Assembly (NCBI GenBank): GCA_964522405.1
Contig: CAZFTR010000001.1
Location: forward strand, 116,686-180,685
Reading direction: 5' to 3'
Length of the DNA: 64,000 nt
DNA from: an uncultured Gammaproteobacteria bacterium
GTDB lineage: Bacteria; Patescibacteriota; Patescibacteriia; Magasanikbacterales; UBA922
The notes beneath the pieces are model-generated. The model worked only from the letters and a program-made list of their open reading frames with translations, had not been told where the DNA came from and made no database searches. The stretch's first letter is position 1, and each line of letters opens with the position of its first letter. The translations under genes were made by a program, and so were the position numbers. Shown here in pieces: positions 411 through 25,391 of this stretch.

Positions 411-1604
411 ATGCAAATAAGTACTGATCAGGAGAAAATAAATGAATTATTGTCGCGCGGAGTAGAGAATATCTATCCAACCAAAGAATTTTTAGAAGAT
501 CGCCTTGAATCAGGAGAGCAATTGTCACTTTATACTGGTTATGATCCAACTGCACCAACTCTTCATATAGGTCATGGGATTACTCTTCTTAAACTTCGCC
601 AGTTCCAAGACCTAGGCCATAAGATAATCATGTTAATTGGGGATTTTACTGCCATGATAGGAGATCCTACTGACAAAGGCGCTGCCAGACAGAAACTAAC
701 CAAGGATCAAGTAATGGCTAATTGCCAAGAATATCAAAAACAAGCCAGTAGAATTTTGGACTTTGAAGGAGAAAATCCAGCAGAATTGCGCTACAATAGT
801 GAGTGGTTGGCTGATATGAGTTTTGCCGACGTGCTGGAGTTAACTTCTCATTTTACAGTACCTCGTTTACTAGAGCGCGATATGTTTCAAGAGAGAATAA
901 AGCAAGAAAAAACAATTTACTTGCATGAATTTATGTATCCAATTATGCAGGGATATGATTGTGTGGCTATGGATGTTGATGGGGAAGTGGGTGGTAATGA
1001 TCAAACTTTCAATATGCTTGCTGGAAGAACCCTAATGAAAGATCTCAAAGACAAAGAAAAATTTGTTTTAACTTCAAAACTTCTTACTGATAGTTCTGGA
1101 AAGAAAATGGGAAAAACTGAAGGAAATATGATTTCATTTTCAGATTCTCCCCAAGATGTTTTTGGAAAGGTTATGAGTTGGACAGATGAGATGATTGTTG
1201 TTGGGATGGAGCTTTGTACCAGAGTTTCAATGTCAGAAATAGAGGAAATTGAAAAGAAAATGAAAGCTGGAGAAAATCCTAGAGATTTTAAATTGCAGCT
1301 TGCATATCAGATTACTAAAACTTTTTTAGGTGAAGAAGCAGCAGAAAAAGGTAAAACACATTTTGAAAATGTTATCCAAAGCAGTGGTAAACCTGATCAA
1401 ATTCCAGAACTTAAACCAAGCTCAAATGACATTATCACCGTTCTTGTAGAAGCTGGTTTTGCTAGTAGTAAGGGTGATGCCAGAAGAGCGATTGATGGTG
1501 GAGGAGTAAAGATAAATGATCAGAAAATAGACAAACATGATGTGCAAGTCAATTCCGGAGACTTAATACAAAAAGGTAAAAGATTTTTTGTAAAAATCGC
1601 CTAG
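411..1604 (+). CDS. tyrS: Tyrosyl-tRNA synthetase
   Basis: Class I HIGH motif (TLHIGHG), KMSKS-like KMGKT, and a C-terminal S4-like RNA-binding tail (GGGVKINDQKI...). Confidence 0.9.
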   Translation: MQISTDQEKINELLSRGVENIYPTKEFLEDRLESGEQLSLYTGYDPTAPTLHIGHGITLLKLRQFQDLGHKIIMLIGDFTAMIGDPTDKGAARQKLTKDQVMANCQEYQKQASRILDFEGENPAELRYNSEWLADMSFADVLELTSHFTVPRLLERDMFQERIKQEKTIYLHEFMYPIMQGYDCVAMDVDGEVGGNDQTFNMLAGRTLMKDLKDKEKFVLTSKLLTDSSGKKMGKTEGNMISFSDSPQDVFGKVMSWTDEMIVVGMELCTRVSMSEIEEIEKKMKAGENPRDFKLQLAYQITKTFLGEEAAEKGKTHFENVIQSSGKPDQIPELKPSSNDIITVLVEAGFASSKGDARRAIDGGGVKINDQKIDKHDVQVNSGDLIQKGKRFFVKIA

Positions 1605-1608
1605 CTTT

Positions 1609-3336
1609 ATGATTGAAATTGTAAAAAAAGAAATACAAGAATTATTAAAATCAGCAGGAGTAACTGGAGAGCTTGAAATTACTTCCCCACCAAAAAAGGA
1701 AATGGGAGATTTTGCTTTTGGCTGCTTTGCTTTGTCAAAAGAGTATGGGCGACCTGAGGGTCATCCACTTTCAGGGAAAAACCCAGCAGAAATTGCTGCT
1801 GAACTTGCTAAAAAAATTGAGCCCAAGGGACTTATCAGTAGGGTTGAAGCTGTTGGGCCTTATATAAATTTTTATATAAATAGTAGTAAATTTGCAGAAG
1901 AATTATTCAAAGGATTGGATCAGACAACAGAAAAATATGGAAAATCAGACAAAAACGCAGGAAAAAAACTAATGTTTGAATTTGCCCATCCAAATACTCA
2001 CAAAGCATTTCATATTGGACATCTGCGAGGTGTCATAACCGGAGAGAGTATTATTAGAATTTTAGAAAATTCAGGATATCAAGTAGTTCGGACAAATTAT
2101 CAGGGAGATGTGGGTATGCATATAGCCAAATGTTTCTATGGTTTGAGTCAGATGCAAGATGAATATCAATCAGTAAAAGACTTAAGCTTAGAAGAAAAAG
2201 TTTCATTTTTGGGTAAAGCTTATGCACATGGTGGTCAAGCATTTGAGGACAGTGAAGACGCTAAGGCTGAAATTATTTCATACAATGATAAGATTTATTC
2301 GCGAGATTCTTCAATAGAGAAGATGTACAAGACAACCAGAGATTGGAGTTTGGAATATTTTGATAAAATTTACCAAAGATTGGGGACTCATTTCGATAGA
2401 TTGTATTTTGAATCAGAAGTTTATGAAAGGGGGCTTGAGCTGGTAGATCAATTTCTGGAAAAAGGAATTTTCAAAAAGAGTGAAGGCGCTATAATTTTTG
2501 AAGGAAGCAGGCATGGACTTCATGATCGAGTTTTTGTGAACAGCAAGGGATTTCCAACTTATGAGGGAAAAGAAATGGCACTTGCTGAAATGCAGCTTAG
2601 TGAATATAAAATAGACAAAGTAGTTCATCTAACTGGAAAAGAACAAGCTGATTATTTCAAAGTGGTTATAAAAGCAATAGAAAGTATTTTTCCTGATTCA
2701 GTAGGAAAAGAAGAACATATTACTTATGGATGGGTTAGACTAAAACATGGGAAAATGAGTTCAAGAACCGGCCAAGTGGTTCTAGGAGAGTGGCTACTCG
2801 ATGAAATTGAAAAAAAGATTGAAGAAACCATGAAAGATCGGCAAATAAAAGACAAAGAAGATTTGCTTAGAAAAATCGGAGTGGCTGCAACAAAATATTC
2901 AATGCTCAAAACCGGAGTTCAGAGCGATATTGCTTTTGATATAGATGAAACAGTTAGTACCACAGGAGATAGTGGTCCTTATCTCTTGTATATAATCACC
3001 AGAATCAAAAGTATTCTAAAAAAGGCAAATCTTGAATCTGATTTTGAATATCCACCTCAGCAAGAAATTAAAAAAGAAGAAAAACAATTATTACTTGATC
3101 TTGCCAAATTTCCAGAAATAGTCCTAGAATCTGCACAAGATTATGATCCATCACAAATTGCCAGGTATTTATTTGGATTGGCACAGGATTTTAATGCTTT
3201 TTATCAAGAATGTTCAGTGGTAAATGCAGAAACAGAAGAAATCAAAAAAGCTCGAGTCAAACTTATCCAAGCAGTGGAGATGATTATGGAGAGAGGTCTG
3301 TTCTTGCTTGGTATTGAGCATGTGGAGGAGATGTAG
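1609..3336 (+). CDS. argS: Arginyl-tRNA synthetase
   Basis: HIGH motif (FHIGHLRG), ArgRS-type MSSRTG motif, 575 aa with an anticodon-binding C-terminal region. Confidence 0.88.
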   Translation: MIEIVKKEIQELLKSAGVTGELEITSPPKKEMGDFAFGCFALSKEYGRPEGHPLSGKNPAEIAAELAKKIEPKGLISRVEAVGPYINFYINSSKFAEELFKGLDQTTEKYGKSDKNAGKKLMFEFAHPNTHKAFHIGHLRGVITGESIIRILENSGYQVVRTNYQGDVGMHIAKCFYGLSQMQDEYQSVKDLSLEEKVSFLGKAYAHGGQAFEDSEDAKAEIISYNDKIYSRDSSIEKMYKTTRDWSLEYFDKIYQRLGTHFDRLYFESEVYERGLELVDQFLEKGIFKKSEGAIIFEGSRHGLHDRVFVNSKGFPTYEGKEMALAEMQLSEYKIDKVVHLTGKEQADYFKVVIKAIESIFPDSVGKEEHITYGWVRLKHGKMSSRTGQVVLGEWLLDEIEKKIEETMKDRQIKDKEDLLRKIGVAATKYSMLKTGVQSDIAFDIDETVSTTGDSGPYLLYIITRIKSILKKANLESDFEYPPQQEIKKEEKQLLLDLAKFPEIVLESAQDYDPSQIARYLFGLAQDFNAFYQECSVVNAETEEIKKARVKLIQAVEMIMERGLFLLGIEHVEEM

Positions 3337-3356: not shown

Positions 3357-4394
3357 ATGAGTACAAGTAGGAAAATCAATAGTGAATCTTTTTTTGAATT
3401 GGATACTTTTTCAGAAAGATGTAAATTTTTATTAAACTACGCAGTATTAGCTCCATCAACCCACAATAGCCAACCATGGCTATTTAAAATTACAGATAAT
3501 TCTTGCAAAATTTACTATGATCCATCAAAAGCTCTTGAATATGCAGACCCAATCAAAAGAGATCTGTTTATAAGCATTGGTTGTTGTGTTGAAAATTTTT
3601 TAATATCTGCAAAATATTTTAAAATGTTTGATGGTCTAAATTATGATTTTCAAAATGATGATAATTTAGTGGTAGAAATATTTCTAAAAGAAAATAATCA
3701 AAATCTAGTAGACGATAATTACTTAGAATTATTAGAGGCGATACAAAATAGATATAATGCCAGAGGATTTTTTGATAAAAGTTCTCTAGGTTTGGAAGAG
3801 ATTGAAAGTTTAACTGACAAAGCAAGTTCGCAAGTAGATCTACCTAAACAAATTGAGATTACTTGTCTTTCAGAGCAGGGGAAAATAGCTGATATAGCAG
3901 ACTTAACAGCAGAAGGGATAAAAATAGCTAATAACAATATTAATTTCAGAAAAGAATTCAATAATTGGTTTCATTCAAGCTATACAAAGAAAAAATATGG
4001 AATTCCCGGATTTGCAGTAAATATGCCTGGAGTTTTATCTCTTTTTATTCCAACTTTGGCCAAGTTTTTTAATCTGGGAAAAATTTTAGCAAAATTAAAT
4101 AGTAAAAGTATAGAATCATCACAATATATTTTTGTCTTTAGCTCAAAGCAAAGTGGGAAATCAGATTGGTTAAGTGTTGGTATGGTTTGTCAGAGATTAA
4201 TGCTGGAATTAGTTTCAAAAGGATTGCAAAATTCAATTTTTGCTGCATCAATTGAAATGGGTAACTTAAATAAAAAACTCAAAGAAATCATAAGTCTGAA
4301 TACTGAACCACATTTTTTATTTGTTTCAGGTTTGATCAAGAATGCAAAAAGATTTACTCCACGATATCAAGTTGAAAATAAAATAATTAAATAG
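3357..4394 (+). CDS. Nitroreductase-superfamily FMN oxidoreductase-like protein (long, Acg/SagB-like pseudo-dimer size)
   Basis: N-terminal nitroreductase signature ...AVLAPSTHNSQPWLF...; 345 aa is about twice a single nitroreductase fold; the C-terminal half is also nitroreductase-like. Confidence 0.55.
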   Translation: MSTSRKINSESFFELDTFSERCKFLLNYAVLAPSTHNSQPWLFKITDNSCKIYYDPSKALEYADPIKRDLFISIGCCVENFLISAKYFKMFDGLNYDFQNDDNLVVEIFLKENNQNLVDDNYLELLEAIQNRYNARGFFDKSSLGLEEIESLTDKASSQVDLPKQIEITCLSEQGKIADIADLTAEGIKIANNNINFRKEFNNWFHSSYTKKKYGIPGFAVNMPGVLSLFIPTLAKFFNLGKILAKLNSKSIESSQYIFVFSSKQSGKSDWLSVGMVCQRLMLELVSKGLQNSIFAASIEMGNLNKKLKEIISLNTEPHFLFVSGLIKNAKRFTPRYQVENKIIK

Positions 4395-4398
4395 AAAT

Positions 4399-5466
4399 AT
4401 GCCAATGATCCAGTTAGGAGAAGATTATTTAAAAAGATTCAAAGAGTTTGATTCACATAGTTCAGTCTTTAAAATTGATGAACCAAAATATGGATTCAAA
4501 GCCTTTATAGCCATTCATCGAGAGAAGAAAAATATCCCAGCATTTGGCGCAACTCGATATCGTTCTTATAAGACTGAAGAAGATGCAATTGCCAATGTTT
4601 TGAATTTATCTAAACTCATGTCTTATAAATCTGCTTTTGCTAGCTTTCCATTTACAGGTGGGAAAGCAGTAATTGTTCCAGAGGATGGCATTAAAGAAGA
4701 TAAAAAAGAGTTGATTTTTTCTGTTTATGCAGACTATTTAAATCAATTAAATAGGAGATTTGTAACAGGATCAGATATAGGAGTAAGTAAAAAAGATGTA
4801 GAAATAATGCGTAGGCAATCTGATTTTATAGTTGGCTTAACAGTTTTTCCTGCTCTTTATACTGCAATTAGTGTGTACCAGTCTATTGAAGTTGCTCTCA
4901 AAGATGTTTTTGGGTCTGCAGATATCAAGGGTAAAACCATAGCTATTCAGGGTCTTGGAAAAACCGGTTTTTGGATTATGGAGAAATTAGCCAATGCCGG
5001 GGCAAATTTGATAGTCAGTGATTTTAACCAAGATATTTTAGACAAAGTTAAAAATGATTTTAAAAATGTTTCAGTAGTTGATCCTGATAAAATCATTGAG
5101 CAAGAAGTCGATATATTTTGTCCCTGTGCTATTGGCGGAGTTATAAATAATCAAATAATTGATAAATTAAAATCTAAAATCATTGTAGGTAGTGCAAACC
5201 TTCAATTAGAAGATGATTCTGTTGATGAGATTCTCTATCAAAAAGGAATTACTTATATACCAGATTATATTGCAAATGCCGGAGGATTAATCTCAGTTGT
5301 CGATGAATACCAAAATGGTCTTGGCGAAGAGAGTCGAATAATCAAAAAGATTTATCAAAATACAGATAAATTATCTGAGGCCATAAAAAAGAGTAAAATT
5401 AACAAAGTTTCAATTTTGAAAAGCTCAAAAGAAATCACTTTTGAAAATTATGAATTAAATTCTTAG
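4399..5466 (+). CDS. Glu/Leu/Phe/Val dehydrogenase-family protein (leucine/phenylalanine dehydrogenase-like)
   Basis: Blockwise similarity to Bacillus leucine dehydrogenase: KAFIAIH, GATRYRSYKTEEDAI, FTGGKAVIV, GKTIAIQGLGKTG (Rossmann), DIFCPCAIGGVIN, IVGSANLQLED, YIPDYIANAGGLI. Confidence 0.75.
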   Translation: MPMIQLGEDYLKRFKEFDSHSSVFKIDEPKYGFKAFIAIHREKKNIPAFGATRYRSYKTEEDAIANVLNLSKLMSYKSAFASFPFTGGKAVIVPEDGIKEDKKELIFSVYADYLNQLNRRFVTGSDIGVSKKDVEIMRRQSDFIVGLTVFPALYTAISVYQSIEVALKDVFGSADIKGKTIAIQGLGKTGFWIMEKLANAGANLIVSDFNQDILDKVKNDFKNVSVVDPDKIIEQEVDIFCPCAIGGVINNQIIDKLKSKIIVGSANLQLEDDSVDEILYQKGITYIPDYIANAGGLISVVDEYQNGLGEESRIIKKIYQNTDKLSEAIKKSKINKVSILKSSKEITFENYELNS

Positions 5467-5469
5467 TAT

Positions 5470-6966
5470 ATGGATATAATAAATATCCAAAAAAAATTGA
5501 GAAGAGAAGATCAGCAAAGCTGGAAAAGAGCTGGTGAAAAAAAAGTTTTAGAATTATTTCATGCCATGTCTGAAAGAGTTCCAGCTTATAGAGATTTTCT
5601 GCAAAAAAATCAGATCAAGTATCAATCAATAAACAGAATAGAGGATTTAAATAAAATCCCAACTATTGATAAGGATAATTATCTTAGAAGATACCCATTA
5701 AAAGATCTGTGTTGGGATGGCATTTTTGATAAGGGTCAATATACAATATCTTCCACTTCCGGATCAACAGGCAAAGCTTTTTATTTTCCAAGAACAAGTA
5801 AGCAGGTTGAAGACTATGCATTGCTTGCTGAGTTGTATCTTTTAGAAAATTTTGAAATTGACAAAAAAACAACTCTTTATATAAATGCTTTTCCTATGGG
5901 ACCTTGGATTGGTGGAGTTTTTACTTATGAAGCTGTGCGATTAGTTGCTGAAAGAGGAAAATATCCTATTAGTATTATCACTCCAGGTATAAATAAAAAG
6001 GAAATATTAAATGAAATAAAGGAATTTGGAAATCAATTTGAGCAGATTCTAATTGGAAGCTATGGTCCGTTTCTAAAAGACATGATTGATGAGGGGATTG
6101 AGCAAGGAATGGACTTTGGTCAGTATAATTTTGGCTGTATTTTTTCAGCAGAAGGTTTTACAGAAGGTTTTAGAGATTATGTTATTGAAAAACTCAGTCT
6201 AAAAGACAAGTATAAAATGACTTTGAATCATTATGGAACTGTTGATCTCGGAACAATGGCTCATGAAACTCCAATAAGTATTCTGATTAGAAGGCTGGCA
6301 ATAAAAAACAGTAGTCTTTACCAGGAATTATTTGGCAATATACATAAGCTACCAACACTTTGCCAATACATGCCTGATTTGTTTTATTTTGAGAGTATTG
6401 ATAATAGATTGATTTGTAGTGCTGACAGTGGAATTCCTCTTTTGAGATATGATCTAAAGGATCATGGAGGTATTTTTACTATAGAAAATCTAGAAAAAAA
6501 ATTTAAAAAGTTTGGCCTTGATCTATATCAGGAAATGGAAGAAGTTGGATTACAAGATTCTCTATGGAATTTACCTTTTGTCTACGTCTATGAGCGAAGT
6601 GATTTTTCTGTTAGTTTGTATGCATTTCAGATTTATCCGGAAACATTGAAGCGAGCTCTACAAAATCATGATTTGCATGAACAGATTACAGGTAAATTTC
6701 ATATGTTGGTCAAATATGATCAAGAACAAAATCAATTTCTTGAAATAAATATTGAATTGAAAAAAAACCAAAAAGAGACAGATCAGCTCCGGGAAAAAAT
6801 AGAAGGTTTTATTATTGACGCCCTTTTGAAAGAAGTTTCTGAATTTGCAGAAACCTATAAGCATAATCCTCAAAAAATGAAGCCAAGTATAGTTTTTTGG
6901 CCCTATGAGGATCAGAAATATTTTAAATCAGGTATTAAGCAAAAATGGAGTAGTAAAATAAATTAA
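5470..6966 (+). CDS. PaaK / coenzyme F390 synthetase-like adenylate-forming enzyme (ANL superfamily)
   Basis: TISSTSGSTGKAFYFPRT adenylation motif preceded by the conserved PaaK-like N-terminal block (VPAYRDFL...IEDLNKIPTIDKDNYLRRYPL). Confidence 0.7.
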   Translation: MDIINIQKKLRREDQQSWKRAGEKKVLELFHAMSERVPAYRDFLQKNQIKYQSINRIEDLNKIPTIDKDNYLRRYPLKDLCWDGIFDKGQYTISSTSGSTGKAFYFPRTSKQVEDYALLAELYLLENFEIDKKTTLYINAFPMGPWIGGVFTYEAVRLVAERGKYPISIITPGINKKEILNEIKEFGNQFEQILIGSYGPFLKDMIDEGIEQGMDFGQYNFGCIFSAEGFTEGFRDYVIEKLSLKDKYKMTLNHYGTVDLGTMAHETPISILIRRLAIKNSSLYQELFGNIHKLPTLCQYMPDLFYFESIDNRLICSADSGIPLLRYDLKDHGGIFTIENLEKKFKKFGLDLYQEMEEVGLQDSLWNLPFVYVYERSDFSVSLYAFQIYPETLKRALQNHDLHEQITGKFHMLVKYDQEQNQFLEINIELKKNQKETDQLREKIEGFIIDALLKEVSEFAETYKHNPQKMKPSIVFWPYEDQKYFKSGIKQKWSSKIN

Positions 6967-6967
6967 T

Positions 6968-8047
6968 ATGGAAAATTTCACCAAACCTCTAATTTTCAAG
7001 GAAGGTTCTTACTCAAAGCAAGATATAGAGGGTTTTCATAAGAATCAGAAAATAAATAAAATTATTGATATTTATCAGGAACAGATAAGAGAGTTGTTTG
7101 AAATCAATAATCCAGGTCTAATCGGCTCAGATCAGTTTGATTTTAAACTTAAGGAATTTTCTGATTCCAAGATCGGCTCAGAGCAAATTCTGGCAGGTAA
7201 TTGGGTTTTTTTCCCTTGGAATGGTAATTTTGTCCATATGGTGGTCGAGGAGGATTATTTTTCTCTTAGGACAAATAGAAATAAAAACCTAATAACAAAA
7301 GAAGAACAATTAGCTTTATCAGAATTTACAGTAGGTTTTGTTGGTCTTTCAGTTGGCTCAGATATGGCTATAAATATGACTTATTCTGGTATAAGTAATT
7401 CCATGAAATTGGCTGAATTTGACACTCTTGAAACCACAAATTTGAATCGGCTTAGAGCAAGAGTTGATCAAATCGGCGGTAAGAAAATTGATATTACTAT
7501 GGAGAAAATTTATCAGGTTAATCCCTATGCTAATTTGATAGATTTTTCTCAAGGTATAAATAAGGAAAATTTAGATTTATTTATAAAGGGAAAAAAGAAT
7601 TTAGATTTAATTTTTGAGATTATTGATGATTTTGAAATGAAAGTACTTTTGAGAATAGCAGCCAAACAAGCAAAAATACCAATTATAATGCTAACCAATT
7701 TGGGGGATAATGTACTTATTGATATAGAGAGATATGATTTGGATCAGGAATTAAAGCCTTTCAATGGTAGGGCAGATCATGTGGTTGATCTGGTAAAATC
7801 AGGTTCCTTGACCAAGGAAGAGGTTCATAAGTATGCCATAGAAATTGTTGGAAAGGAAAATGTGCCGGAAAAAGCCCAAGATTCAGTAAAAGAAATAGGT
7901 AATACTCTGGTTGGTAGACCGCAACTTATGAGTACGGTAAGTATTTCAGGTGGTTTGGCTTCTTTTCTTTCTCGCAAGATTGCGCTTGGTAACAGTTTGC
8001 CAAGTGGTAGATATAAGTTTTCAATTGAGAATATAATTCAAAATTAG
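6968..8047 (+). CDS. ThiF/MoeB/E1-like adenylyltransferase-family protein with an extra N-terminal domain
   Basis: Rossmann plus E1 signature VGFVGLSVGSDMAINMTYSGISNSMKLAEFDTLETTNLNRL (GxGxxG ... D.D.ve.sNLnRq). Confidence 0.65.
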   Translation: MENFTKPLIFKEGSYSKQDIEGFHKNQKINKIIDIYQEQIRELFEINNPGLIGSDQFDFKLKEFSDSKIGSEQILAGNWVFFPWNGNFVHMVVEEDYFSLRTNRNKNLITKEEQLALSEFTVGFVGLSVGSDMAINMTYSGISNSMKLAEFDTLETTNLNRLRARVDQIGGKKIDITMEKIYQVNPYANLIDFSQGINKENLDLFIKGKKNLDLIFEIIDDFEMKVLLRIAAKQAKIPIIMLTNLGDNVLIDIERYDLDQELKPFNGRADHVVDLVKSGSLTKEEVHKYAIEIVGKENVPEKAQDSVKEIGNTLVGRPQLMSTVSISGGLASFLSRKIALGNSLPSGRYKFSIENIIQN

Positions 8048-8052
8048 ATTCT

Positions 8053-8931
8053 ATGAATGCTGAGGATAGTTTGCTAAATTCAATTGCAGCAGAATTGGTT
8101 ATTGATTCAATTGTTGTTGATGACAAAAAAATTAATTTTGTAGTTGCTGGGCATGGTCCTGATTTACTGCTTTTGCATGGGGCTAATATTGGTTGGGGAC
8201 AATGGTATAAAAATATAGCTGTTTTTTCAAAAAAATTTAGAGTTTATGCTATTGATTTGCCAGGCTCAGTAGGTTCTTCTCCTGTAAACTACTCAGATTT
8301 TGATCTAAATAGAGATTTGCTGGAAATAGTGGAGAAATTTATACTTGAAAAAAAACTAAAAAAACCAGTGATTGTAGGCCATTCAATAGGTGCCTGGATA
8401 GCCGCTTCAATTGCAGTTAGAGGTAAAATAGATCTTAAATCATTAGTTCTGGCACATCCTATAGGATTTTCTAAAAAAACCCCAATTAAGCAAATTCCAC
8501 TTTCAATAAAATTTATAGCAAAGTTTATCTCTAAGTTTCTGTTTAAACCTACCAAAATCAATCTAGAAAAATTTATAAGAAGTGAAATTAAACAAAAAAA
8601 ATCAATTGATCCTATTTTTGTTGATTATTATTTTGAATCAGTTAATAAAAATGAGTTATCGCATCCTTTTTTATTTATAAGTTCTCTGATGAAGCCTTTT
8701 AGGTTAAACAAACAGCTAAATTTAGTTGATGATCTTCAGAAAATAAAAAAACCAACACTAATTTTGTTTGGAAAAGATGACAAATTGGTAAAACCAAGAT
8801 ATAATTATAGCAATGCTAGTAAAATTCCCAATTCTAAGATAAAAGTTTTTGATTCTGTAGGTCATGTTTCTCCAATAGAGGCTGCAGAAGAATTTAATCG
8901 CATAGTTTTAAATTTTGCCATGCAAAGTTAA
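8053..8931 (+). CDS. Alpha/beta-fold hydrolase
   Basis: HG oxyanion motif (LLLHGANIGW), nucleophile elbow VGHSIGAW (GxSxG), C-terminal His region (VGHVSPIE). Confidence 0.7.
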   Translation: MNAEDSLLNSIAAELVIDSIVVDDKKINFVVAGHGPDLLLLHGANIGWGQWYKNIAVFSKKFRVYAIDLPGSVGSSPVNYSDFDLNRDLLEIVEKFILEKKLKKPVIVGHSIGAWIAASIAVRGKIDLKSLVLAHPIGFSKKTPIKQIPLSIKFIAKFISKFLFKPTKINLEKFIRSEIKQKKSIDPIFVDYYFESVNKNELSHPFLFISSLMKPFRLNKQLNLVDDLQKIKKPTLILFGKDDKLVKPRYNYSNASKIPNSKIKVFDSVGHVSPIEAAEEFNRIVLNFAMQS

Positions 8932-8932
8932 C

Positions 8933-10549
8933 ATGAAGATTAGCCTGTCAGTACAATTTTCTATTTTGATTATAACTACACTTATTAATTTTCTTTTGTT
9001 ACATTCAGTTTACAATGCTAAACCTAGAAAAATATCAAATAAAATCTTCGCTCTTTTAAGTTTTGTAACTAGTCTTTGGTTTATTGCCATGTATGCCTCA
9101 GTTCAGCCCGGATTAGTTGATTATGGATTGCTGATTTTAAGAGCCACTTTCTTTTTGGCTGCTCCCATGAGCATGCTTCTTTTTCTTTTGGCTCATGTTA
9201 TGCCGGAAAACAAGATAACTTTTAAGAAATCTACCTTATATTCTGTCTATTCAATAACTGTATTGATGATGTTTTTATCATTCACTGATCTGATGTTTAG
9301 TGGAGTAACAGTAATAAATGGTTCAATTCAACCAATTCCTGGTTTGGGTATGTTATTTTTCTCGCTGGTTTCTACTTTTTTCAGTGTTTCAGCTGTATAC
9401 ATTCTTATCAGAAAGTACTTTAGGTTTGTCGAGGCTAAGCGCAAGCAAGTAAGATTGATTCTTGCGGGAATATTTATTATGTTGTCTTTGATTATTTCAA
9501 CTATCATGGTCCCGGTTGCCCTATTTGAAAATAATTATTTTGTATCTTTTGCGCCTTTTTATGTATTACTTTTCCTAGTTTTTACTGCGGCTGCAATTAT
9601 GAAGCACAGGCTATTTAATATAAAATTAATTGCCACAGAATCATTTATCGCTATACTGATAATAGTTGTTTTGTTTGAAGGTATGCTTTCTGATTCTCTA
9701 GTGCAGTTAGTATATAAAATTTTATTTGCAATTTTTATCGGATTTCTAGGAAGATTACTCATAAGGAGTGTGAAGAGAGAAATAAGACAAAGAGAAAAAT
9801 TAACCATAATGACCAAGAATTTGGAAACTGCAAATTTACGACTAAAACAGCTTGATCAGCAGAAGACAGAATTTCTTTCAATTGCCTCTCATCAACTTCG
9901 TACACCACTTTCCATTATCAAAGGATATCTTGAACTTATAAAAGATGGAGCTTATGGAAAAGTAACCAAGGCCACAGTTGAGATTTTAGATAATATGGAT
10001 ACTAGCAATGAAAGGCTGGTCAAATTGGTTGATGAATTTCTTGATGTTACCAGAATTGAACAGGGGAGGACCAAGTATAATTTTGAAAAACATAATATGT
10101 CTGATCTTATTTCCGGAGTGGTAGAGGAATTAAGAGATAGGGCAACACAAAAAGGTTTGAAATTAAATTGGAAAAAACCCAGTAAATTTCCTGAGTTTAA
10201 AATTGATGAGGAAAAAATTCGTCATGTAGTTTTTAATTTTATTGATAATGCTACAAAATACACTGAAAGAGGAAAAATAGATGTCAGCTTGGAGAAGGAT
10301 GCCAAGGGTGTAAGTTTTAAAGTAAAAGATACTGGTATAGGTTTTAACAAAAAAGATCAAGTAAATTTCTTTCAGAAGTTTTTTCGGGGTACAAATGTAA
10401 AAACAGTAAATGTAGGTGGTACAGGACTTGGTATTTATGTTTGTAAAAAATTTATAGAAAACCATAAAGGTAAAGTTTGGGCCAAAAGTCCTGGCTTGGG
10501 GAAGGGTGGAGAATTTGGTTTTTGGATACCTTTCAAGAGAAAAAAATAA
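8933..10549 (+). CDS. Sensor histidine kinase with a polytopic N-terminal membrane domain (no response regulator nearby)
   Basis: Multiple TM helices, H-box SIASHQLRTPLSIIKGY, HATPase G-boxes (DTGIGF, GGTGLGIYVCKKF). The likely start is the ATG at 8933, immediately after the upstream stop. Confidence 0.8.
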   Translation: MKISLSVQFSILIITTLINFLLLHSVYNAKPRKISNKIFALLSFVTSLWFIAMYASVQPGLVDYGLLILRATFFLAAPMSMLLFLLAHVMPENKITFKKSTLYSVYSITVLMMFLSFTDLMFSGVTVINGSIQPIPGLGMLFFSLVSTFFSVSAVYILIRKYFRFVEAKRKQVRLILAGIFIMLSLIISTIMVPVALFENNYFVSFAPFYVLLFLVFTAAAIMKHRLFNIKLIATESFIAILIIVVLFEGMLSDSLVQLVYKILFAIFIGFLGRLLIRSVKREIRQREKLTIMTKNLETANLRLKQLDQQKTEFLSIASHQLRTPLSIIKGYLELIKDGAYGKVTKATVEILDNMDTSNERLVKLVDEFLDVTRIEQGRTKYNFEKHNMSDLISGVVEELRDRATQKGLKLNWKKPSKFPEFKIDEEKIRHVVFNFIDNATKYTERGKIDVSLEKDAKGVSFKVKDTGIGFNKKDQVNFFQKFFRGTNVKTVNVGGTGLGIYVCKKFIENHKGKVWAKSPGLGKGGEFGFWIPFKRKK

Positions 10550-10662: not shown

Positions 10663-11133
10663 ATGTTTAAATCATCAGAACCTCAAATCTCAAAACAAGA
10701 TACACAAGCAAAATCTTCTTCTGATAGTGTTGAGACAGTAGTAGGGCCATCAGTGGTGGTGGAGGGTGATTTTTCTTCTGAGGGTAATATTTTAGTAAAA
10801 GGAACAGTTTCAGGAAATGTAAAAACAGCGCAACTGCTCACTGTTGAGGCTGGGGCAAAGATTTTGGCAAATGTAAAGGCACATGATGCTCTGATTTCCG
10901 GAGAAGTAAAAGGTAATGTCCGAGTAAATGAGAAGCTTGAACTAACAGAATCAGCAAGAATTAGAGGAGATATATCTTGTAAGGTTTTGGTTGTTGCCGG
11001 CGGAGCACTTTTACAAGGAAAAGTCGGTATGAAAGGAATTGAGATTGCAGGCTCTGGAGCAGAAAAGAAAAAAACTCCAAAAGCCAAACCGAGTAAATCT
11101 GTTTCTGATTTAGAGATCAAACCATCTTCATAA
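10663..11133 (+). CDS. Bactofilin-family cytoskeletal protein
   Basis: Repeating beta-helical pattern (VVEGDFSSEGNILVKGTVSGNV ... ISGEVKGNVRV ... IRGDISCKVLVVAGGALLQGKV) and a Lys/Pro-rich C-terminal tail. Confidence 0.7.
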   Translation: MFKSSEPQISKQDTQAKSSSDSVETVVGPSVVVEGDFSSEGNILVKGTVSGNVKTAQLLTVEAGAKILANVKAHDALISGEVKGNVRVNEKLELTESARIRGDISCKVLVVAGGALLQGKVGMKGIEIAGSGAEKKKTPKAKPSKSVSDLEIKPSS

Positions 11134-11177
11134 AATAGATTGATTCTATTTTATTATCATCTTTCTAAAGGATAGAT

Positions 11178-11939
11178 ATGTACGTATACCTATATGACAA
11201 TTTTCTCAAGCAAAAACGCTATGAGAATGTTTTGAAGTCAATTGAAACCAAATTGACTGATTATGGTATTGCTGGTAAGATTATCCGACTGCAAAATTTC
11301 ACTAATGCCGAGTGGGTAATAGAAGATGAAATTAGAAAAGGTGCCAAAACAGTAGTAATTGTGGGTAATGATGTTACTTTTGGACATGTTTTATCACGAG
11401 CAGCTGCAAGCAATGTAATTTTTGGATTTCTTCCGATAGGTCCGCAAAATTCTATTGCTGAAGTTCTTGGAATTCCCACTGATGAAACTGCTGCAGATGT
11501 TTTGGCAAGAAGAAGAAAAGTAAGACTTGATGTGGGTTGGTTTAACAATCGTTATTTTATTTCTCAGCTGTATATAGAGCCAAGTAATATTGCAGTTGAA
11601 TATGATGAGAAATTTAAAGTTTCCAGTAAAAGTAAAAAAATGGAATTAGTAGTTTGCAATCTCCAGCCTTTTCATTGGAAGAAAAAGGGTAAGGACAATG
11701 TAGTTCATCCGCAAGACGGTAAACTTGAGGCATTTCTACGGCCAATGGTAAAAACTAAGCTTTTTAGAAAAGCAGAATTTGAAGATCCAAGTATTTTTCC
11801 ATTTGAAGAAATGATAGTTAGCAGTAAAACTCCTTTTCCTGTAAAAGCAGATGGGAAATTATCCAAAGAGACAAAAATAACAATTAAGCTAGCCAAGAAG
11901 AGAATAAATATGATTGTTGGTGGAGCCAGGAAGTTTTAA
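11178..11939 (+). CDS. DAGK_cat / YegS-like lipid kinase-family protein
   Basis: VVIVGNDVTFGHVL (GGDGT-like) and LPIGPQNSIAEVLGIP (lP.GtgNdfar.lgip-like) motifs. Confidence 0.55.
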   Translation: MYVYLYDNFLKQKRYENVLKSIETKLTDYGIAGKIIRLQNFTNAEWVIEDEIRKGAKTVVIVGNDVTFGHVLSRAAASNVIFGFLPIGPQNSIAEVLGIPTDETAADVLARRRKVRLDVGWFNNRYFISQLYIEPSNIAVEYDEKFKVSSKSKKMELVVCNLQPFHWKKKGKDNVVHPQDGKLEAFLRPMVKTKLFRKAEFEDPSIFPFEEMIVSSKTPFPVKADGKLSKETKITIKLAKKRINMIVGGARKF

Positions 11940-11958: not shown

Positions 11959-12041
11959 GCGCGAGTGGTGGAACGGTAGACACGCAGGCTTGAGGGGCCT
12001 GTGCTCGCAAGGGTGTGGAGGTTCAAATCCTCTCTCGCGCA
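11959..12041 (+). tRNA. tRNA-Leu (anticodon GAG), type II with a long variable arm
   Basis: Hand-folded: acceptor GCGCGAG/CTCGCGC, 3-bp D stem, anticodon stem CAGGC/GCCTG with loop TTGAGGG, long variable arm, T arm GGAGG-TTCAAAT-CCTCT, discriminator A. No encoded CCA. Confidence 0.8.
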
Positions 12042-12097
12042 CAAAAAAAGCAAGGTTTCTGGCCTTGTTTTATTATTTACGAGATAAATTGGGAGTC

Positions 12098-12136
12098 GGG
12101 CGACGCGTCTGAGGGGAACCTCAGACGCGTCGCCAC
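12098..12136. repeat. Perfect 16-bp GC-rich hairpin (GGCGACGCGTCTGAGG-GGAA-CCTCAGACGCGTCGCC) at the distal edge of island 2
   Basis: Read directly; marks the AT/GC boundary next to the tRNA-Leu. Confidence 0.6.
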
Positions 12137-12422
12137 ACTCGCCGTCCTTGCCTGCGCTGTTGCGCAGACCCGCGTGGTTGGGGCGCCGTGCACCCCTTCC
12201 TTGCCTGGCCGCCGAAGCGACCTGTCGGTGCCCGGTATGGTACCGGAGCACTCCTGGCGTCGAAGCGCTCATCGTGGTGTCTCGCCGTTGCGATTCACCG
12301 GAGTCGGCGCGCTGGCGTGCGCCATTCTCGAGATGACCCTTGCAGTCGGTGCCGTCAGCAGGTGACGGCGGTTCCGTTGCCTTGAGCGATCATCTGTGCC
12401 CCCGAAGAGGCCTTCGGCGTGG

Positions 12423-13286
12423 CTACCAGCTGAAGCAGAAGTCGCTGCTCGTCGCCGTGTAGCCCGCCTCGTCGCAGCAGCCCGCGGTCACCCCGTTCGG
12501 GTTGTCGCCGCCCGCGCCGTAGTCGGTGTTCACGTCCTCGTTGGTCGCCGCCGTCACGTTCTCCGCCGCCGCGGTGGCCGTCTGGTTCAGGTTGTGCGGG
12601 AAGTCGCCCGTCGCAGCCGTCGCCGTGTTGGTCATGCCCGAGTTGCCAGTCTCCACCGTCTCGCCGCCGCCCGCGCCGTAGTCGGTGTTGCCCAGGTTGG
12701 CCTTGTTCGCGTCGAAGTCCGCCGTACCGCCGGTGTCGTTCGCCGCGTTCGCGCCGTAGTCGGTGTTCACCACCATCTCGATCTGGGTCGCGCCGTAGTC
12801 CACCAGGAAGGGGATGTCCACAGCCAGCGTGGTGTCCACCCGCATCAGGATCGCGGTCGCGCCGTGCTCGCCGTAGTTGTCCAGCATGGTCGCCCAGATC
12901 GCCGTCGCGTTCTCCGTCGCTGCACCCGCGTTGTCGTGCATCCACTGCCAGCCGTCGAAGGCCACCGTCTCGCGCGCCGCGCCGTAGTCGGTGTTGGTGC
13001 CCATGATGAGGTGCGCCAGCTCGTCGTCGGTCAGGGCCGCCTCCCGGTTCATGGCGAACCAGTTGTTGGCCGCGTCCAGCAGAACCCGGTTGCTGTTGCC
13101 GTCGTCGACGAAGGTCAACAGCAGGTTGCCGTTGAAGTCCACGTCCACCGTCAGGGTGGTGTGGGCCGGGGCGTCGACCTGATCGATGGTCGGCGTGTCC
13201 GGCTCGGCAGCCGCGATGCTGGTGGGCAGCACCAGCAGAAGCAGGACCGCGAATGCGGCCGTCAGGAACGAAAGTCTCCGTCTCAT
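12423..13286 (-). CDS. Secreted protein with six copies of an N(T)DYGA motif; high-GC codon usage
   Basis: N-terminal signal peptide (MRRRLSFLTAAFAVLLLLVLPTSIAAAEP). Repeated GTNTDYGAA, NTDYGANA, NTDYGAGG (x2), VDYGAT, DNYGEHGA. C-terminal Cys cluster CCDEAGY...FCFSW. RBS GGAGG sits 10 nt before the ATG. Third codon positions are almost all G/C, unlike the flanking genes. Confidence 0.7.
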   Translation of the reverse strand: MRRRLSFLTAAFAVLLLLVLPTSIAAAEPDTPTIDQVDAPAHTTLTVDVDFNGNLLLTFVDDGNSNRVLLDAANNWFAMNREAALTDDELAHLIMGTNTDYGAARETVAFDGWQWMHDNAGAATENATAIWATMLDNYGEHGATAILMRVDTTLAVDIPFLVDYGATQIEMVVNTDYGANAANDTGGTADFDANKANLGNTDYGAGGGETVETGNSGMTNTATAATGDFPHNLNQTATAAAENVTAATNEDVNTDYGAGGDNPNGVTAGCCDEAGYTATSSDFCFSW

Positions 13287-13351
13287 CTTAGGAATTCCTC
13301 CACAAGGTCATCAACTTCCCGCGCCAGGTTTGGTTCGGGATTGCATTATCC

Positions 13352-13380
13352 ATTATATGATTTTTTTTGAGAGTGTGCAA
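13352..13380 (-). promoter_or_regulatory. Consensus sigma70 promoter (TTGCAC-17-TATAAT) driving the secreted repeat protein
   Basis: Minus strand: -35 at 13375-13380, -10 at 13352-13357, 17-nt spacer, located in AT-rich DNA. Confidence 0.55.
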
Positions 13381-13918: not shown

Positions 13919-13921
13919 ATG

Positions 13922-25240: not shown

Positions 25241-25391
25241 ATTTAACTCTTAATAAAATTAATTTAAAAATTCTCTTATATGATTATTGTATCATATTTG
25301 TTCTTTTGGTAAATATTTTAATTCAAAAAGAGAGAGGTTTGTATGCAGCTTATTTTGCTTGCTGGTAGATAATTTCCATTAGTTTTTAGTG

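Follow-up and report, generated by a model that had tools for sequence, protein, structure and literature searches.

A conserved six-gene module of CPR bacteria, tentatively assigned to oxazolone-type chemistry beside a membrane-embedded histidine kinase

What do five enzyme genes packed behind argS in a CPR genome make together, and what is a membrane histidine kinase doing at their end? We analyzed a 64-kb stretch of DNA (the window), in which an ORF listing recovered the same five ORFs, all on the + strand between 3357 and 8931, that had initially been described as tightly packed and co-directional with 1-5-nt gaps (Table 1). The gaps are 4, 3, 1 and 5 nt, and 20 nt separate the end of argS (3336) from the first ORF. 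The kinase ORF overlaps the hydrolase gene by 17 nt if its TTG start is used; an alternative ATG at 8933 lies 1 nt past the hydrolase stop. Profile (Pfam, NCBIfam) and PDB matches bore out the earlier domain assignments for all five enzymes. We tentatively propose that the module builds a 5(4H)-oxazolone (azlactone)-type cyclic amino-acid derivative by two successive ATP-dependent carboxylate activations, and that this chemistry is tied to the membrane-embedded kinase.

Table 1. Genes of the module in the window and their predicted products
Product	Position	Strand	Length	Supporting matches
Double-length nitroreductase-fold flavin-dependent oxidase (FDO), predicted C-alpha/C-beta desaturase	3357..4394	+	345 aa	NF047509, Rv1355c model, PDB
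NAD(P)-dependent Leu/Phe-type amino-acid dehydrogenase (DH), amino acid <-> 2-oxo acid	4399..5466	+	355 aa	Pfam ELFV_dehydrog_N + ELFV_dehydrog, PDB
PaaK-fold adenylate-forming (ANL) ligase, module marker gene	5470..6966	+	498 aa	
ThiF-like adenylating cyclase, TrzS/Rv1355c type, with family-specific N-terminal ~100 aa	6968..8047	+	359 aa	
Alpha/beta-fold serine hydrolase, accessory	8053..8931	+	292 aa	Pfam Abhydrolase_1/6, Hydrolase_4
Polytopic histidine kinase, predicted sensor	8915..10549	+		Pfam HisKA_7TM, HisKA, HATPase_c

We surveyed 55 CPR loci that had enough flanking sequence, this one among them, using the PaaK-like gene as anchor. ThiF accompanies this gene in all 55, and the HisKA_7TM kinase is its second most constant partner (53/55). 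Either a Leu/Phe-type dehydrogenase or a class-I aminotransferase is found in 51 loci, never both, with the dehydrogenase present in 29 and the aminotransferase taking its place in 22. An FDO gene lies nearby in 42 of the 55 loci, fused to ThiF in 6, and is missing nearby in the remaining 13. The hydrolase is found in just 14 loci and is thus an accessory rather than the core member it had been taken for; wherever it appears in the gene-order strings, it is the gene immediately before the kinase and follows ThiF or FDO. The same gene set recurs in at least 13 named CPR lineages, and the co-occurrence holds although gene order and strand vary. Module-internal gaps have a median of 20 nt, and the genes also occur as predicted PaaK~ThiF, ThiF~PaaK, DH~PaaK and DH~PaaK~ThiF fusions, which rest on metagenomic gene calls and could in some cases be frameshift or stop-codon artefacts. 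No further gene family was found repeatedly adjoining the module across lineages, and among the 80 genome loci fetched the PaaK-like family is confined to CPR MAGs. This arrangement is far beyond chance. Homologues of these genes are clearly co-localized in other genomes across Patescibacteria, which supports the earlier reading of the set as a single functional unit whose chemistry starts from amino acids. From the co-occurrence, the short gaps and the predicted fusions we conclude that the enzyme genes encode one pathway, and that the five enzymes and the membrane histidine kinase make up a six-gene module kept across many CPR lineages.

The initial annotation regarded the combination as not a known cluster type, a view that the ThiF and nitroreductase-fold proteins do not support, as they match the two halves of a characterized enzyme. 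Rv1355c is TrzS, a ThiF-cyclase/flavin-dependent-oxidase fusion that produces N-acyl tryptazolones (PMC12856293); the N-acyl-oxazolone synthetases characterized besides it are OxzB and TyzB/TyzC (bioRxiv 10.1101/2020.06.11.147165; PMC10404671). The window ThiF protein, whose ThiF domain (residues 104-240) follows an extra N-terminal region of ~100 aa, scores 250.7 bits against positions 11-340 of the Rv1355c-family model NF005901, its N-terminal half. It aligns with TrzS-type ThiF over its full length, the N-terminal extension included, and a BLASTP comparison with a Rhodococcus TrzS-like protein gave 34% identity (1e-58). The FDO match is much weaker, with 50.5 bits on the C-terminal half of the model (positions 374-639) and 29% identity to the TrzS-like protein over just 63 aa. 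The window FDO is much nearer the Acg/Rv3131 type, scoring 172.8 bits on the Acg family model NF047509 (cut-off 199) with Acg (2ymv) as its top PDB match. It does align to the FDO portion of ThiF-FDO fusions from CPR bacteria and actinobacteria, and each of the residues A32, P33, S34, N37, Q39, P40, W41, G75, R132, G275 and G325 occurs in at least 95% of 65 homologues. In Saccharibacteria and Roizmanbacteria, ThiF and FDO form a single protein of 718-761 aa, which scores 351-381 bits on the Rv1355c model (positions 11-645), below the NCBI equivalog cut-off of 476 for that family. By homology, it is slightly more likely than not that ThiF and FDO work together as cyclase and desaturase, with an N-acylated amino acid as substrate. 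A 2025 review names no validated small-molecule reaction of ThiF proteins other than oxazolone formation (PMC12596934).

Could the ThiF protein instead serve E1-type protein conjugation or sulfur-carrier activation (MoeB/ThiF/Cap2/Bil-like)? It carries a Pfam ThiF domain, MoeB and Uba-type E1s are among its structural neighbors, and it gives weak PADLOC E1-E2 matches (best 7.4e-08). The residues invariant in the family are R104, GLSVG, D152, NLNR161, K173 and D220; the adenylation machinery is retained, whereas E1 features are missing. The window protein contains no Cys at all, none is conserved across 84 homologues, and the MoeB/ThiF equivalog models score 31-65 bits, far under their cut-offs of 152-376. 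No E2, JAB or rhodanese partner is present among the module genes, and no ThiS/MoaD/Ubl-like ORF ending in GG was found in 83 loci, so that we give this option almost no credence. A second suggestion was drawn from TOMM and microcin pathways, where an E1-like enzyme would activate the carboxylate of a precursor peptide and a SagB-like dehydrogenase would oxidize an azoline. The earlier observation that the locus has neither a precursor peptide nor a YcaO gene extends to the module gaps, the domains of the module genes and the recurrent neighbors: we found no conserved precursor-sized ORF, and merely 5 of 112 module-internal gaps reach 150 nt. The N-terminal region of ThiF is predicted to run beta-alpha-beta-alpha-alpha-beta-beta, a topology that by our own reading differs from an RRE, and it is common to TrzS, which acts on small molecules. 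Fusion of the dehydrogenase to the ligase and ThiF further implies free amino-acid substrates. A RiPP-like route is thus highly improbable, and the ThiF/nitroreductase-fold pair corresponds to the Rv1355c/TrzS halves rather than to a TOMM pair.

The dehydrogenase matches LeuDH (6acf, 2e-65), TrpDH (5b37, 2e-54) and PheDH (1e-35) in the PDB, and 38 of 40 module-linked homologues retain the catalytic residues K68/K80/D115 (1LEH numbering), the other two being gapped there. Compared with LeuDH, the pocket shows A113->G (38/38), V291->L (29/40) and L40->F (31/38). The G/L combination at positions 113 and 291 is what we take to be the PheDH-type pair, B. sphaericus PheDH G124/L307 (Seah et al.). 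The pocket thus points to an aromatic or bulky substrate. Natural oxazolones known so far all come from Tyr, Phe or Trp (PMC12856293); the known oxazolone pathways offer no explanation for the dehydrogenase or aminotransferase of this module.

The PaaK fold of the ligase is assigned with confidence, and all ANL motifs are intact. Source annotations call its homologues 'phenylacetate-CoA ligase', and together with a bona fide ELFV dehydrogenase with a PheDH-like pocket this would suit aromatic amino-acid catabolism or salvage, in which a Phe/Leu dehydrogenase yields a 2-oxo acid that becomes an arylacetate and then, by a genuine PaaK, aryl-acetyl-CoA, under two-component control. Such a route is very unlikely. 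The PaaK equivalog models give 32-39 bits against cut-offs of 646-700, in line with the earlier view that neither the ligase nor ThiF is a housekeeping PaaK or MoeB. No 2-oxoacid decarboxylase/oxidoreductase or paaABCDE-type gene is present among the six module genes, nor does another gene family recur beside them across lineages. The ever-present ThiF cyclase and the FDO have no place in the route, and the DH~PaaK~ThiF fusions argue for a single biosynthetic sequence. Close structural neighbors of the ligase include the PaaK-like ligase 6siw and ClxA; in benzoxazole pathways, ClxA and another PaaK-family ligase, NatL2, make ester or amide linkages independently of CoA (PMC7204872, PMC12519233). 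Sequence alone gives no means here of telling whether the ligase forms amides or CoA thioesters. Known oxazolone pathways use an OxzA/TyzA/TrzA acyltransferase; the CPR module lacks an enzyme of this type and has a PaaK-fold ligase instead, and a search of 83 loci at thresholds as loose as E <= 10 turned up nothing resembling TrzA. That the PaaK-like enzyme makes the N-acyl amino-acid substrate without an acyltransferase is, in our estimate, slightly less likely than not.

The module is best read as a variant oxazolone pathway driven by ATP, with its chemistry deduced by homology. The dehydrogenase or aminotransferase would supply one building block by converting between an L-amino acid, either aromatic or bulky and hydrophobic, and the corresponding 2-oxo acid. 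The ligase may then adenylate a carboxylic acid, possibly the 2-oxo acid or an arylacetate-like acid, and attach it directly to an amino acid at the amino group, yielding an N-acyl amino acid; it would stand in for the acyl-CoA-dependent N-acyltransferase (OxzA/TyzA/TrzA), with NatL2 and ClxA as precedents. ThiF would adenylate the carboxylate of this intermediate, and the amide oxygen would close the oxazolone ring, a ring closure shown biochemically for TrzS, TyzB and OxzB (PMC12856293, PMC10404671, bioRxiv 10.1101/2020.06.11.147165). By analogy to TyzC and the FDO domain of TrzS, the Acg-type oxidase may desaturate the C-alpha/C-beta bond, a step that is probably optional because 13 of the 55 loci have no FDO gene nearby. 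Either desaturation is not obligatory, or ThiF makes a different product in those loci. Known FDOs require O2, and many CPR bacteria are thought to be anaerobic. The hydrolase has HsaD/BphD as its nearest PDB relatives (5e-19) and carries a GHSIG nucleophile elbow, an Asp and a His; azlactone ring-opening or turnover and acyl transfer are candidate roles, and where present it might process or turn over the reactive azlactone. The same set of enzymes could in principle form another heterocycle such as a dehydro-diketopiperazine, with the ligase making a dipeptide, ThiF activating its C-terminal carboxylate, the N-terminal amine closing a six-membered ring and the oxidase acting like AlbA. Since a dipeptide formally counts as an N-acyl amino acid, the ThiF homology is compatible with it, and an amino-acid-supplying dehydrogenase or aminotransferase suits a product of two amino acids. 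AlbA, a nitroreductase-fold cyclic-dipeptide oxidase, desaturates cyclodipeptides in albonoursin biosynthesis, according to bioRxiv 10.1101/2020.06.11.147165, and the TrzAS authors count cyclic dipeptides as known cell-cell signaling molecules (PMC12856293). We consider this variant unlikely.

The initial annotation called the histidine kinase an orphan, and indeed no response regulator was found anywhere in the 64-kb window; yet its constancy shows that it is a partner and not an unrelated neighbor marking a boundary, and in the CPR loci it almost always closes the + strand array. Residues 1-283 form 8-9 hydrophobic segments joined by loops of at most 25 aa, with no extracytoplasmic domain. 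Comparison of 70 orthologues shows H326, N441/N445 and the G1/G2 boxes to be conserved, and aromatic or aliphatic side chains predominate among the conserved positions of the sensor (F45, W55, P97, F149, F220, I228). A CheY-like regulator adjoins the module in 37 of the 55 loci, and the regulators linked to it are single-domain proteins without any output domain. From adjacency, the 7TM kinase might detect the lipophilic product or a linked membrane state and would then phosphorylate the CheY-like regulator. That it senses the module product is possible but doubtful; its position is equally compatible with plain operon regulation or sensing of an external cue.

Rather unlikely, in our estimate, is that the chemistry is as proposed and the product is an envelope lipid, stress protectant, reactive acyl donor or antimicrobial, with kinase and regulator only timing the operon or sensing an unrelated membrane cue. 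Two-component systems beside the operons they regulate are commonplace, and 18 of the 55 loci, including this window, have no adjoining response regulator. Mycobacterium oxazolones were first described as lipids tied to oxidative-stress resistance, and their physiological role is unknown even there (PMC10404671; PMC12856293). However, CheY-like regulators without a DNA-binding output fit transcriptional control of an operon poorly, and in lineages that reshuffled all else the kinase is kept as faithfully as the enzymes. Its sensor lies wholly within the membrane and has a conserved core of hydrophobic residues, much like receptors that detect lipophilic autoinducers, among them CqsS and AgrC. 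Signaling genes also neighbor the known oxazolone loci, a feature they share with the CPR module: Mtb trzAS adjoins c-di-GMP genes (PMC12856293), and a GGDEF gene adjoins the Rhodococcus plasmid oxazolone locus. Although unproven, the constant pairing of these enzymes with a sensor suggests that their product is a signal.

We compared the module proteins with Pfam, NCBIfam and PDB, and the matches bore out all of the domain calls that the initial annotation had made for them. Gene 1 encodes a double-length nitroreductase-fold oxidase (FDO), which scores 172.8 bits on the Acg-family model NF047509 (cut-off 199) and finds its best PDB match in Acg (2ymv). Gene 2 encodes an ELFV dehydrogenase (DH), for which the PDB matches rank leucine dehydrogenase (6acf, 2e-65) before tryptophan dehydrogenase (2e-54) and phenylalanine dehydrogenase (1e-35). 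Gene 3 codes for a PaaK-like ligase, and in the product of gene 4 a ThiF domain (residues 104-240, Pfam) is preceded by ~100 extra residues. Gene 5 encodes an alpha/beta hydrolase whose nucleophile elbow reads GHSIG and whose closest PDB relatives are the C-C hydrolases HsaD/BphD (5e-19). The five genes are separated by 4, 3, 1 and 5 nt, the array begins 20 nt past argS, and the GC content is ~30% throughout the module region. The histidine kinase ORF overlaps gene 5 by 17 nt, or starts 1 nt past it if the ATG at 8933 is used. A scan for terminator-like sites found none between argS and the array, which suggests that the module is co-transcribed with the tRNA synthetase genes; the promoter/terminator scan of the module region as a whole performed no better than on shuffled sequence. 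The order (valS)-tyrS-argS-[module]-bactofilin-DAGK-like protein (411-3336 and 10663-11939 in the window) is fixed in this lineage (the window and loci L005, L010, L054, L069). The nearest syntenic loci come from Magasanikbacteria MAGs, where the kinase is 49-54% identical.

Positions of the module genes and of other features in the window
Feature	Coordinates	Strand	Basis or content
Gene 1, FDO	3357-4394	+	ORF listing
Gene 2, DH	4399-5466	+	ORF listing
Gene 3, PaaK-like ligase	5470-6966	+	ORF listing
Gene 4, ThiF-like protein	6968-8047	+	ORF listing
Gene 5, alpha/beta hydrolase	8053-8931	+	ORF listing
Histidine kinase	8915-10549	+	HisKA_7TM sensor, HisKA, HATPase_c (Pfam)
tRNA-Leu(GAG)	11959-12042
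GC-rich island	12080-13320		~1.25 kb, 64-70% GC
ORF in island	12396-13370	+	no Pfam match
ORF in island	12423-13286	-	no Pfam match
ORF in island	12355-12945	-	no Pfam match
Class A bacterial RNase P RNA (161.9 bits), tRNA-Arg(TCG), tRNA-Lys(CTT), tRNA-Leu(CAA)	13920-14315, 25391-25627, 55638-55720	-	ordinary features

Further downstream, the GC-rich island contrasts with a genome of ~31% GC. It follows immediately on the 3' side of tRNA-Leu(GAG) and precedes the RNase P RNA. Possible explanations are foreign DNA inserted at a tRNA gene, a chimeric assembly or a structured RNA absent from Rfam.

We investigated the conservation of the neighbourhood, starting from the PaaK-like protein. It has >2200 relatives at 90% clustering, the best 120 of which are all 53-59% identical to it and, where named, come from several CPR lineages; in a 50%-clustered set, 533 relatives pass E<=1e-30. 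Scanning a single genome for each species matched 147 species and returned 80 loci, with titles naming Woyke-, Magasanik-, Doudna-, Lipton-, Roizman-, Adler-, Kaiser-, Gottesman-, Woese- and Nomurabacteria, Paceibacterota and Saccharibacteria, and Levybacteria and 'Parcubacteria' occur among the ThiF homologues. HMMs built from the window proteins were run against all stop-to-stop segments of the loci, and partners were counted in the 55 loci where the PaaK-like gene is flanked by at least 4 kb of upstream and at least 6 kb of downstream sequence. A ThiF gene accompanies the ligase gene in all 55 loci, and a HisKA_7TM-type kinase gene in 53 of them. The Leu/Phe-type DH (29/55) and a class-I aminotransferase (AT; 22/55) never occur together, and one or the other is present in 51 loci. 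An FDO is found in 42 loci, fused to ThiF in 6, and is absent nearby in the remaining 13; a single-domain response regulator is present in 37/55 and the hydrolase in 14/55. The gene order varies from FDO-DH-PaaK-ThiF-hydrolase-kinase in the window to DH-PaaK-ThiF~FDO-hydrolase-kinase (~ denoting a fusion), ThiF-DH-PaaK-FDO-kinase, or a divergently transcribed regulator-AT pair next to PaaK-ThiF-FDO(either strand)-kinase. Tight packing is kept despite this reordering, with a median gap of 20 nt and 5 of 112 intra-module gaps reaching at least 150 nt. Further combinations are predicted as fusion proteins, namely PaaK~ThiF (863 aa), ThiF~PaaK (880 aa), DH~PaaK (847 aa) and DH~PaaK~ThiF (1242 aa). 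Co-localisation in other genomes, on which the initial proposal of a functional unit hinged, is thus decisively established. The limits of the unit shift, however: the kinase, originally left outside a five-gene unit, belongs to the module, and the hydrolase, counted as one of its core members, is an accessory.

Many loci with typical CPR gene content carry the titles 'uncultured Gammaproteobacteria' or 'Polyangiaceae' (L008, L013, L016, L019, L024, L029, L030, L043 and others). One of them, L030, is an SRP-derived MAG with a 0.94-Mb chromosome, and the ThiF homologue P0196 lies on a 1.07-Mb contig labelled 'Thermoplasmatales archaeon'. Such titles probably reflect placeholder names or mis-binning in the source records.

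The window ThiF finds its top NCBIfam match in NF005901 ('Rv1355c family protein'), aligning with model positions 11-340 at 250.7 bits; the runner-up among ThiF-type models scores 69 bits. The window FDO weakly matches positions 374-639 of the same 722-position model (50.5 bits). The two proteins cover separate stretches of one model, and their genes thus represent the two halves of one known fusion protein. ThiF~FDO fusions of 718 and 761 aa are indeed present in Saccharibacteria and Roizmanbacteria. They match model positions 11-645 with 351.5 and 381.5 bits, below the NCBI equivalog cut-off of 476 (a Rhodococcus control scores 839.8), and reach 196-229 bits on the Acg-family model. In BLASTP, the window ThiF is 34% identical over 338 aa to a Rhodococcus Rv1355c-family protein (1e-58), and the alignment with plasmid Rv1355c-family proteins spans the N-terminal W.(Y/F)(Y/F)PW...VH and the C-terminal PQL...GLG..L.SGR regions. 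Its best family match, its full-length homology including the N-terminal extension and its intact adenylation residues together place it in the TrzS/Rv1355c lineage. Residues kept in at least 95% of 84 homologues include R104, G126-L-S-V-G130, D152, N158-L-N-R161, K173 and D220. R104 corresponds to the arginine finger of MoeB and ThiF, residues 126-130 to their glycine-rich loop, D152 to their ribose-binding Asp, residues 158-161 to their NL(Q/N)R motif, K173 to their phosphate-binding Lys and D220 to their Mg/ATP Asp. This active-site reading uses canonical ThiF and nitroreductase motifs together with family conservation; the plasmid paralogues are numbered differently from TrzS(Msmeg), whose published residues are D217, R540 and Q651. 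The window FDO, encoded in the same operon three genes upstream of ThiF, is far more divergent from the FDO half of TrzS-like proteins (29% over 63 aa, BLASTP) and by HMM is closer to the Acg/Rv3131 type.

Rv1355c is TrzS, which converts N-acyl-tryptophan to N-acyl tryptazolone by an ATP-dependent cyclisation followed by an O2-dependent desaturation (PMC12856293). OxzB of Pseudoalteromonas rubra works like TrzS (bioRxiv 10.1101/2020.06.11.147165), and in M. tuberculosis the separate TyzB (ThiF) and TyzC (FDO) proteins perform TrzS-type chemistry (PMC10404671). A 2025 review lists the oxazolone type as the sole validated case of a ThiF-like enzyme acting on a small molecule (PMC12596934). By homology, the cyclase/oxidase core of the CPR module would be that of the oxazolone synthetases. 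TrzAS (Rv1356c/Rv1355c; Mycobacterium, Rhodococcus; PMC12856293) shares with it a ThiF cyclase with the same N-terminal extension and C-terminal region, the pairing or fusion with a double-length nitroreductase-superfamily flavin oxidase, and a tendency to adjoin signalling genes. The two systems differ in that separate genes that are not neighbours encode FDO (the first gene) and ThiF (the fourth) in the window, that a 7TM histidine kinase is a fixed partner, and that the hosts are CPR bacteria rather than mycolic-acid actinobacteria. For the tyrazolone/phenazolone pathways OxzAB (P. rubra) and TyzACB (Mtb Rv2336-2338c), the described logic is the same: an N-acyl aromatic amino acid undergoes ATP-dependent cyclisation by ThiF and flavin-dependent C-alpha/C-beta desaturation, with cyclase and oxidase separate in TyzB/TyzC as in the window (PMC10404671). 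Unlike the CPR module, these clusters contain no ligase, dehydrogenase, hydrolase or kinase, and their acyl-CoA donor comes from fatty-acid metabolism via a FeeM/AHL-synthase-like enzyme (bioRxiv 10.1101/2020.06.11.147165; PMC10404671). AclA from Tenacibaculum discolor (PDB 9egb/9egc, released 2025) differs from the module ThiF in consisting of a 250-265 aa core with no N-terminal region.

Two plasmid loci carry relatives of this ThiF. On a plasmid of Streptomyces sp. NBC_01471 (L089, 4830-6628), a stand-alone ThiF with the same N-terminal extension, 31% identical to the window ThiF over 368 aa (1e-60), is followed by a GNAT-family gene and has no FDO; like the 13 FDO-less CPR loci, it may represent a relative of the oxazolone systems that lacks the oxidase. 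On a plasmid of Rhodococcus sp. AQ5-07 (L087, 3863-7956), a TrzS-like gene lies between a GGDEF-domain gene, which parallels the c-di-GMP genes beside M. tuberculosis trzAS, and a divergent gene for a 259-aa hypothetical protein that has no Pfam match and is presumably a TrzA-type acyltransferase.

Pairs of E1-like and nitroreductase-fold proteins had initially been likened to TOMM and microcin pathways. This likeness does not extend to the module, which has neither a YcaO domain in any of its genes (Pfam) nor an adjacent precursor peptide. A search for short ORFs, as had been suggested at the outset, found all ORFs of 20-90 aa in the window module inside larger genes and none free-standing in the gaps of 1-5 nt; across loci, gaps of 150 nt or more are as rare as counted above. 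A RiPP/TOMM system is hence poorly supported. The same holds for E1-type conjugation or sulfur-carrier activation: the window ThiF has no cysteine at all, no cysteine is conserved in the 84 homologues, and small ORFs ending in GG do not recur, the three cases in 83 loci being non-homologous chance occurrences. Without a cysteine and a recurrent Gly-Gly ORF, thioester, persulfide and Ubl chemistry can thus be excluded. As candidates, a precursor-peptide or Ubl gene was rejected, there being no free-standing small ORF in the window module and no conserved gap or GG-ending ORF across loci, and so was a defence system, for which PADLOC models returned weak generic E1-E2 matches to the ThiF domain and nothing else.

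The PaaK-like protein has a two-domain PaaK fold of the ANL type, with a P-loop, a YGT/E motif, a hinge R..D and a C-terminal catalytic Lys, and its closest structural neighbours include ClxA and the PaaK-like ligase 6siw; the Pfam AMP-binding domain gave no match. A catabolic PaaK route is poorly supported, as the protein scores 32.0 bits on the PaaK equivalog TIGR02155 (cut-off 646.3) and 39.2 bits on NF041878 (cut-off 700). This also speaks against a housekeeping PaaK, in line with the initial annotation. The CPR protein is ~60 residues longer than PaaK and contains an extra helical segment (about residues 338-358, in the stretch ~336-368 at window 6475-6573) that separates the RYDLKD hinge motif from the C-terminal domain's ERSD motif, where the link in PaaK is much shorter. 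FAALs and NatL2 have elements close to the hinge that prevent the CoA-thioester conformation (PMC7204872). The CoA-independent PaaK-family ligases NatL2/BomJ and ClxA from benzoxazole biosynthesis transfer their acyl-adenylate directly to a small-molecule nucleophile (PMC7204872, PMC12519233, PMC9400959). These enzymes are 17% identical to the CPR ligase, lack its additional length and post-hinge helical insert, act on aminohydroxybenzoates and have an amidohydrolase rather than a ThiF protein as cyclase partner.

Non-CPR relatives were considered as a clue to function and set aside, as their context is variable and does not clarify it. A large actinomycete sister family of the PaaK-like protein, ~32% identical to the window protein, is represented by Nonomuraea gerenzanensis (L090/L092) and Lentzea (L093) loci; a Nonomuraea-seeded search gave 4600 matches at E<=1e-10, the best 120 nearly all from Streptosporangiales. 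No ThiF or FDO neighbour was found at L090/L092 or L093. The Nonomuraea ligase gene follows genes for a HisKA_3 kinase and a NarL-type regulator and precedes one for a 734-aa protein without a Pfam domain; the Lentzea context differs. On plasmid 1 of Gemmatirosa kalamazoonensis (L091, 6685-9287), a nitroreductase-fold FDO homologue immediately precedes a PaaK-like gene of 27% identity, and no ThiF is nearby; this is a pairing of FDO and ligase outside CPR.

All characterised oxazolone clusters begin with a FeeM/AHL-synthase-like acyl-CoA:amino-acid N-acyltransferase (bioRxiv 10.1101/2020.06.11.147165; PMC10404671; PMC12856293). Here the CPR module departs from TrzAS most clearly, having a PaaK-fold ligase and a DH or AT instead: Pfam detected no OxzA/TyzA/TrzA-type N-acyltransferase among the six module genes, and phmmer searches with the presumed, position-inferred Rhodococcus TrzA-like protein and the Streptomyces GNAT returned nothing from 83 CPR loci or the window at E<=10, within the sensitivity of single-sequence queries. 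We infer that the ligase and an enzyme interconverting amino acid and 2-oxo acid stand in the acyltransferase's place. The DH contains both ELFV domains (PF02812, PF00208), and all 38 aligned sequences retain the catalytic K68, K80 and D115 (1LEH numbering); its score on the ScyB equivalog (254.6) is below the cut-off of 600. Its pocket has Gly at LeuDH A113 in 38/38, Leu at V291 in 29/40 and Phe at L40 in 31/38 sequences. A Gly/Leu pair (PheDH G124/L307) is said, following Seah et al., to set phenylalanine dehydrogenase apart from leucine dehydrogenase. With this PheDH-type pair, the amino acid used by the module likely has a bulky or aromatic side chain, which would agree with the Tyr/Phe/Trp origin of all known oxazolones. 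The AT (PF00155, 3e-58) is divergently transcribed, usually together with the response regulator. It displaces DH in the same slot, which argues that the module needs the interconversion itself and not a particular enzyme.

In the mechanism we propose, DH or AT would supply the building block, and the ligase would use ATP to form an N-acyl, possibly N-2-oxoacyl or N-arylacetyl, amino acid. ThiF would then adenylate the carboxylate and close the oxazolone ring, and FDO would desaturate the ring product. The hydrolase, if present, may process or recycle the product, to which the kinase would respond. The ThiF and FDO steps are modelled on homologous enzymes with demonstrated activity, and the other steps are inferred. 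Several points weaken the proposal: the CPR proteins do not reach the curated Rv1355c cut-off, the FDO resembles Acg and is missing near 13 of the 55 loci, known FDOs use O2, and the role assigned to DH or AT is without precedent in oxazolone pathways. On the chemical side, the main alternative is that a dipeptide ligase, a ThiF cyclase and an AlbA-like oxidase together make a dehydro-diketopiperazine.

We analyzed the kinase in relation to the proposed oxazolone-type product. Its sensor region comprises 8-9 hydrophobic segments within residues 1-283, with loops of at most 25 residues and no extracytoplasmic domain. Across 70 orthologues, most of the sensor residues under conservation have aromatic or aliphatic side chains. 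The same orthologues keep the H-box (H326), the N-box (N441/N445) and the G-boxes, and the kinase is thus predicted to be catalytically competent. The response regulator found adjacent at other loci is a bare receiver domain of 120-130 aa; none was found in the 64-kb window. CqsA-CqsS, LqsA-LqsS and AgrBD-AgrC are pairs of an autoinducer synthase and a polytopic sensor kinase. The CPR module resembles them in placing small-molecule biosynthetic genes beside a histidine kinase with a transmembrane-helix-only sensor. It differs in chemistry and in its bare-receiver regulator, has no sequence relationship to them, and its signalling role is conjecture. A membrane-only sensor fixed beside genes for a putative lipophilic, hydrolytically labile heterocycle recalls such pairs; what the data show is the kinase's adjacency in 53/55 loci and its all-transmembrane sensor. 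A signalling role has also been raised in the oxazolone papers, and c-di-GMP genes adjoin trzAS (PMC12856293), much as a GGDEF gene stands next to the plasmid homologue in Rhodococcus. These parallels are suggestive but do not demonstrate sensing. Biologically, the main alternative is that the module performs this chemistry with no part in signalling.

A literature search found no paper tying CPR bacteria to oxazolones, or the PaaK-like ligase family to ThiF/FDO or a kinase; searches on HisKA_7TM and AclA found nothing relevant, and the supplement of PMC12856293 mentions neither CPR nor ligases. The cyclase/oxidase core is known; what is new here is the chemistry by which the pathway is entered, its constant link with a two-component sensor and its phylogenetic setting. 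ThiF-plus-flavin-oxidase oxazolone synthetases were first reported in 2020-2021, with M. tuberculosis following in 2023 and 2025 (bioRxiv 10.1101/2020.06.11.147165; PMC10404671; PMC12856293). The module joins this recent chemistry to a new entry route, with a PaaK-fold ligase and DH/AT rather than an acyl-CoA acyltransferase, and to a dedicated sensor kinase. With it, ThiF-like enzymes likely gain a second case of small-molecule chemistry, and the PaaK-fold ligases a new functional branch.

CPR bacteria are minute episymbionts, for the most part uncultured, that can synthesise very little for themselves. That a module of several enzymes persists in at least 13 of their candidate lineages, at 50-59% identity, makes it likely to matter for their lifestyle. 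CPR bacteria are not known to make fatty acids, and their acyl-CoA pools may be small; an acyltransferase-free entry would suit such organisms. We tentatively put forward, while considering it rather improbable as a whole, a CPR-wide autoinducer system, in which a CoA-independent route not seen before would lead from host-scavenged amino acids to an oxazolone-type or related dehydro-heterocycle, with the 7TM kinase as dedicated receptor and output via the CheY-like protein. If true, CPR/Patescibacteria would, as far as we know, have their first described native system of chemical signalling and oxazolones of any kind their first receptor, and it would answer what bacterial oxazolones are for. 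Their physiological role is explicitly open in the literature, and the conserved pairing of synthase and kinase offers a testable hypothesis, that the product controls kinase activity, in few genes. With its product and role proposed but unproven, the module is conserved, compact and tractable, and may provide a handle both on the role of oxazolones and on signalling in CPR bacteria.
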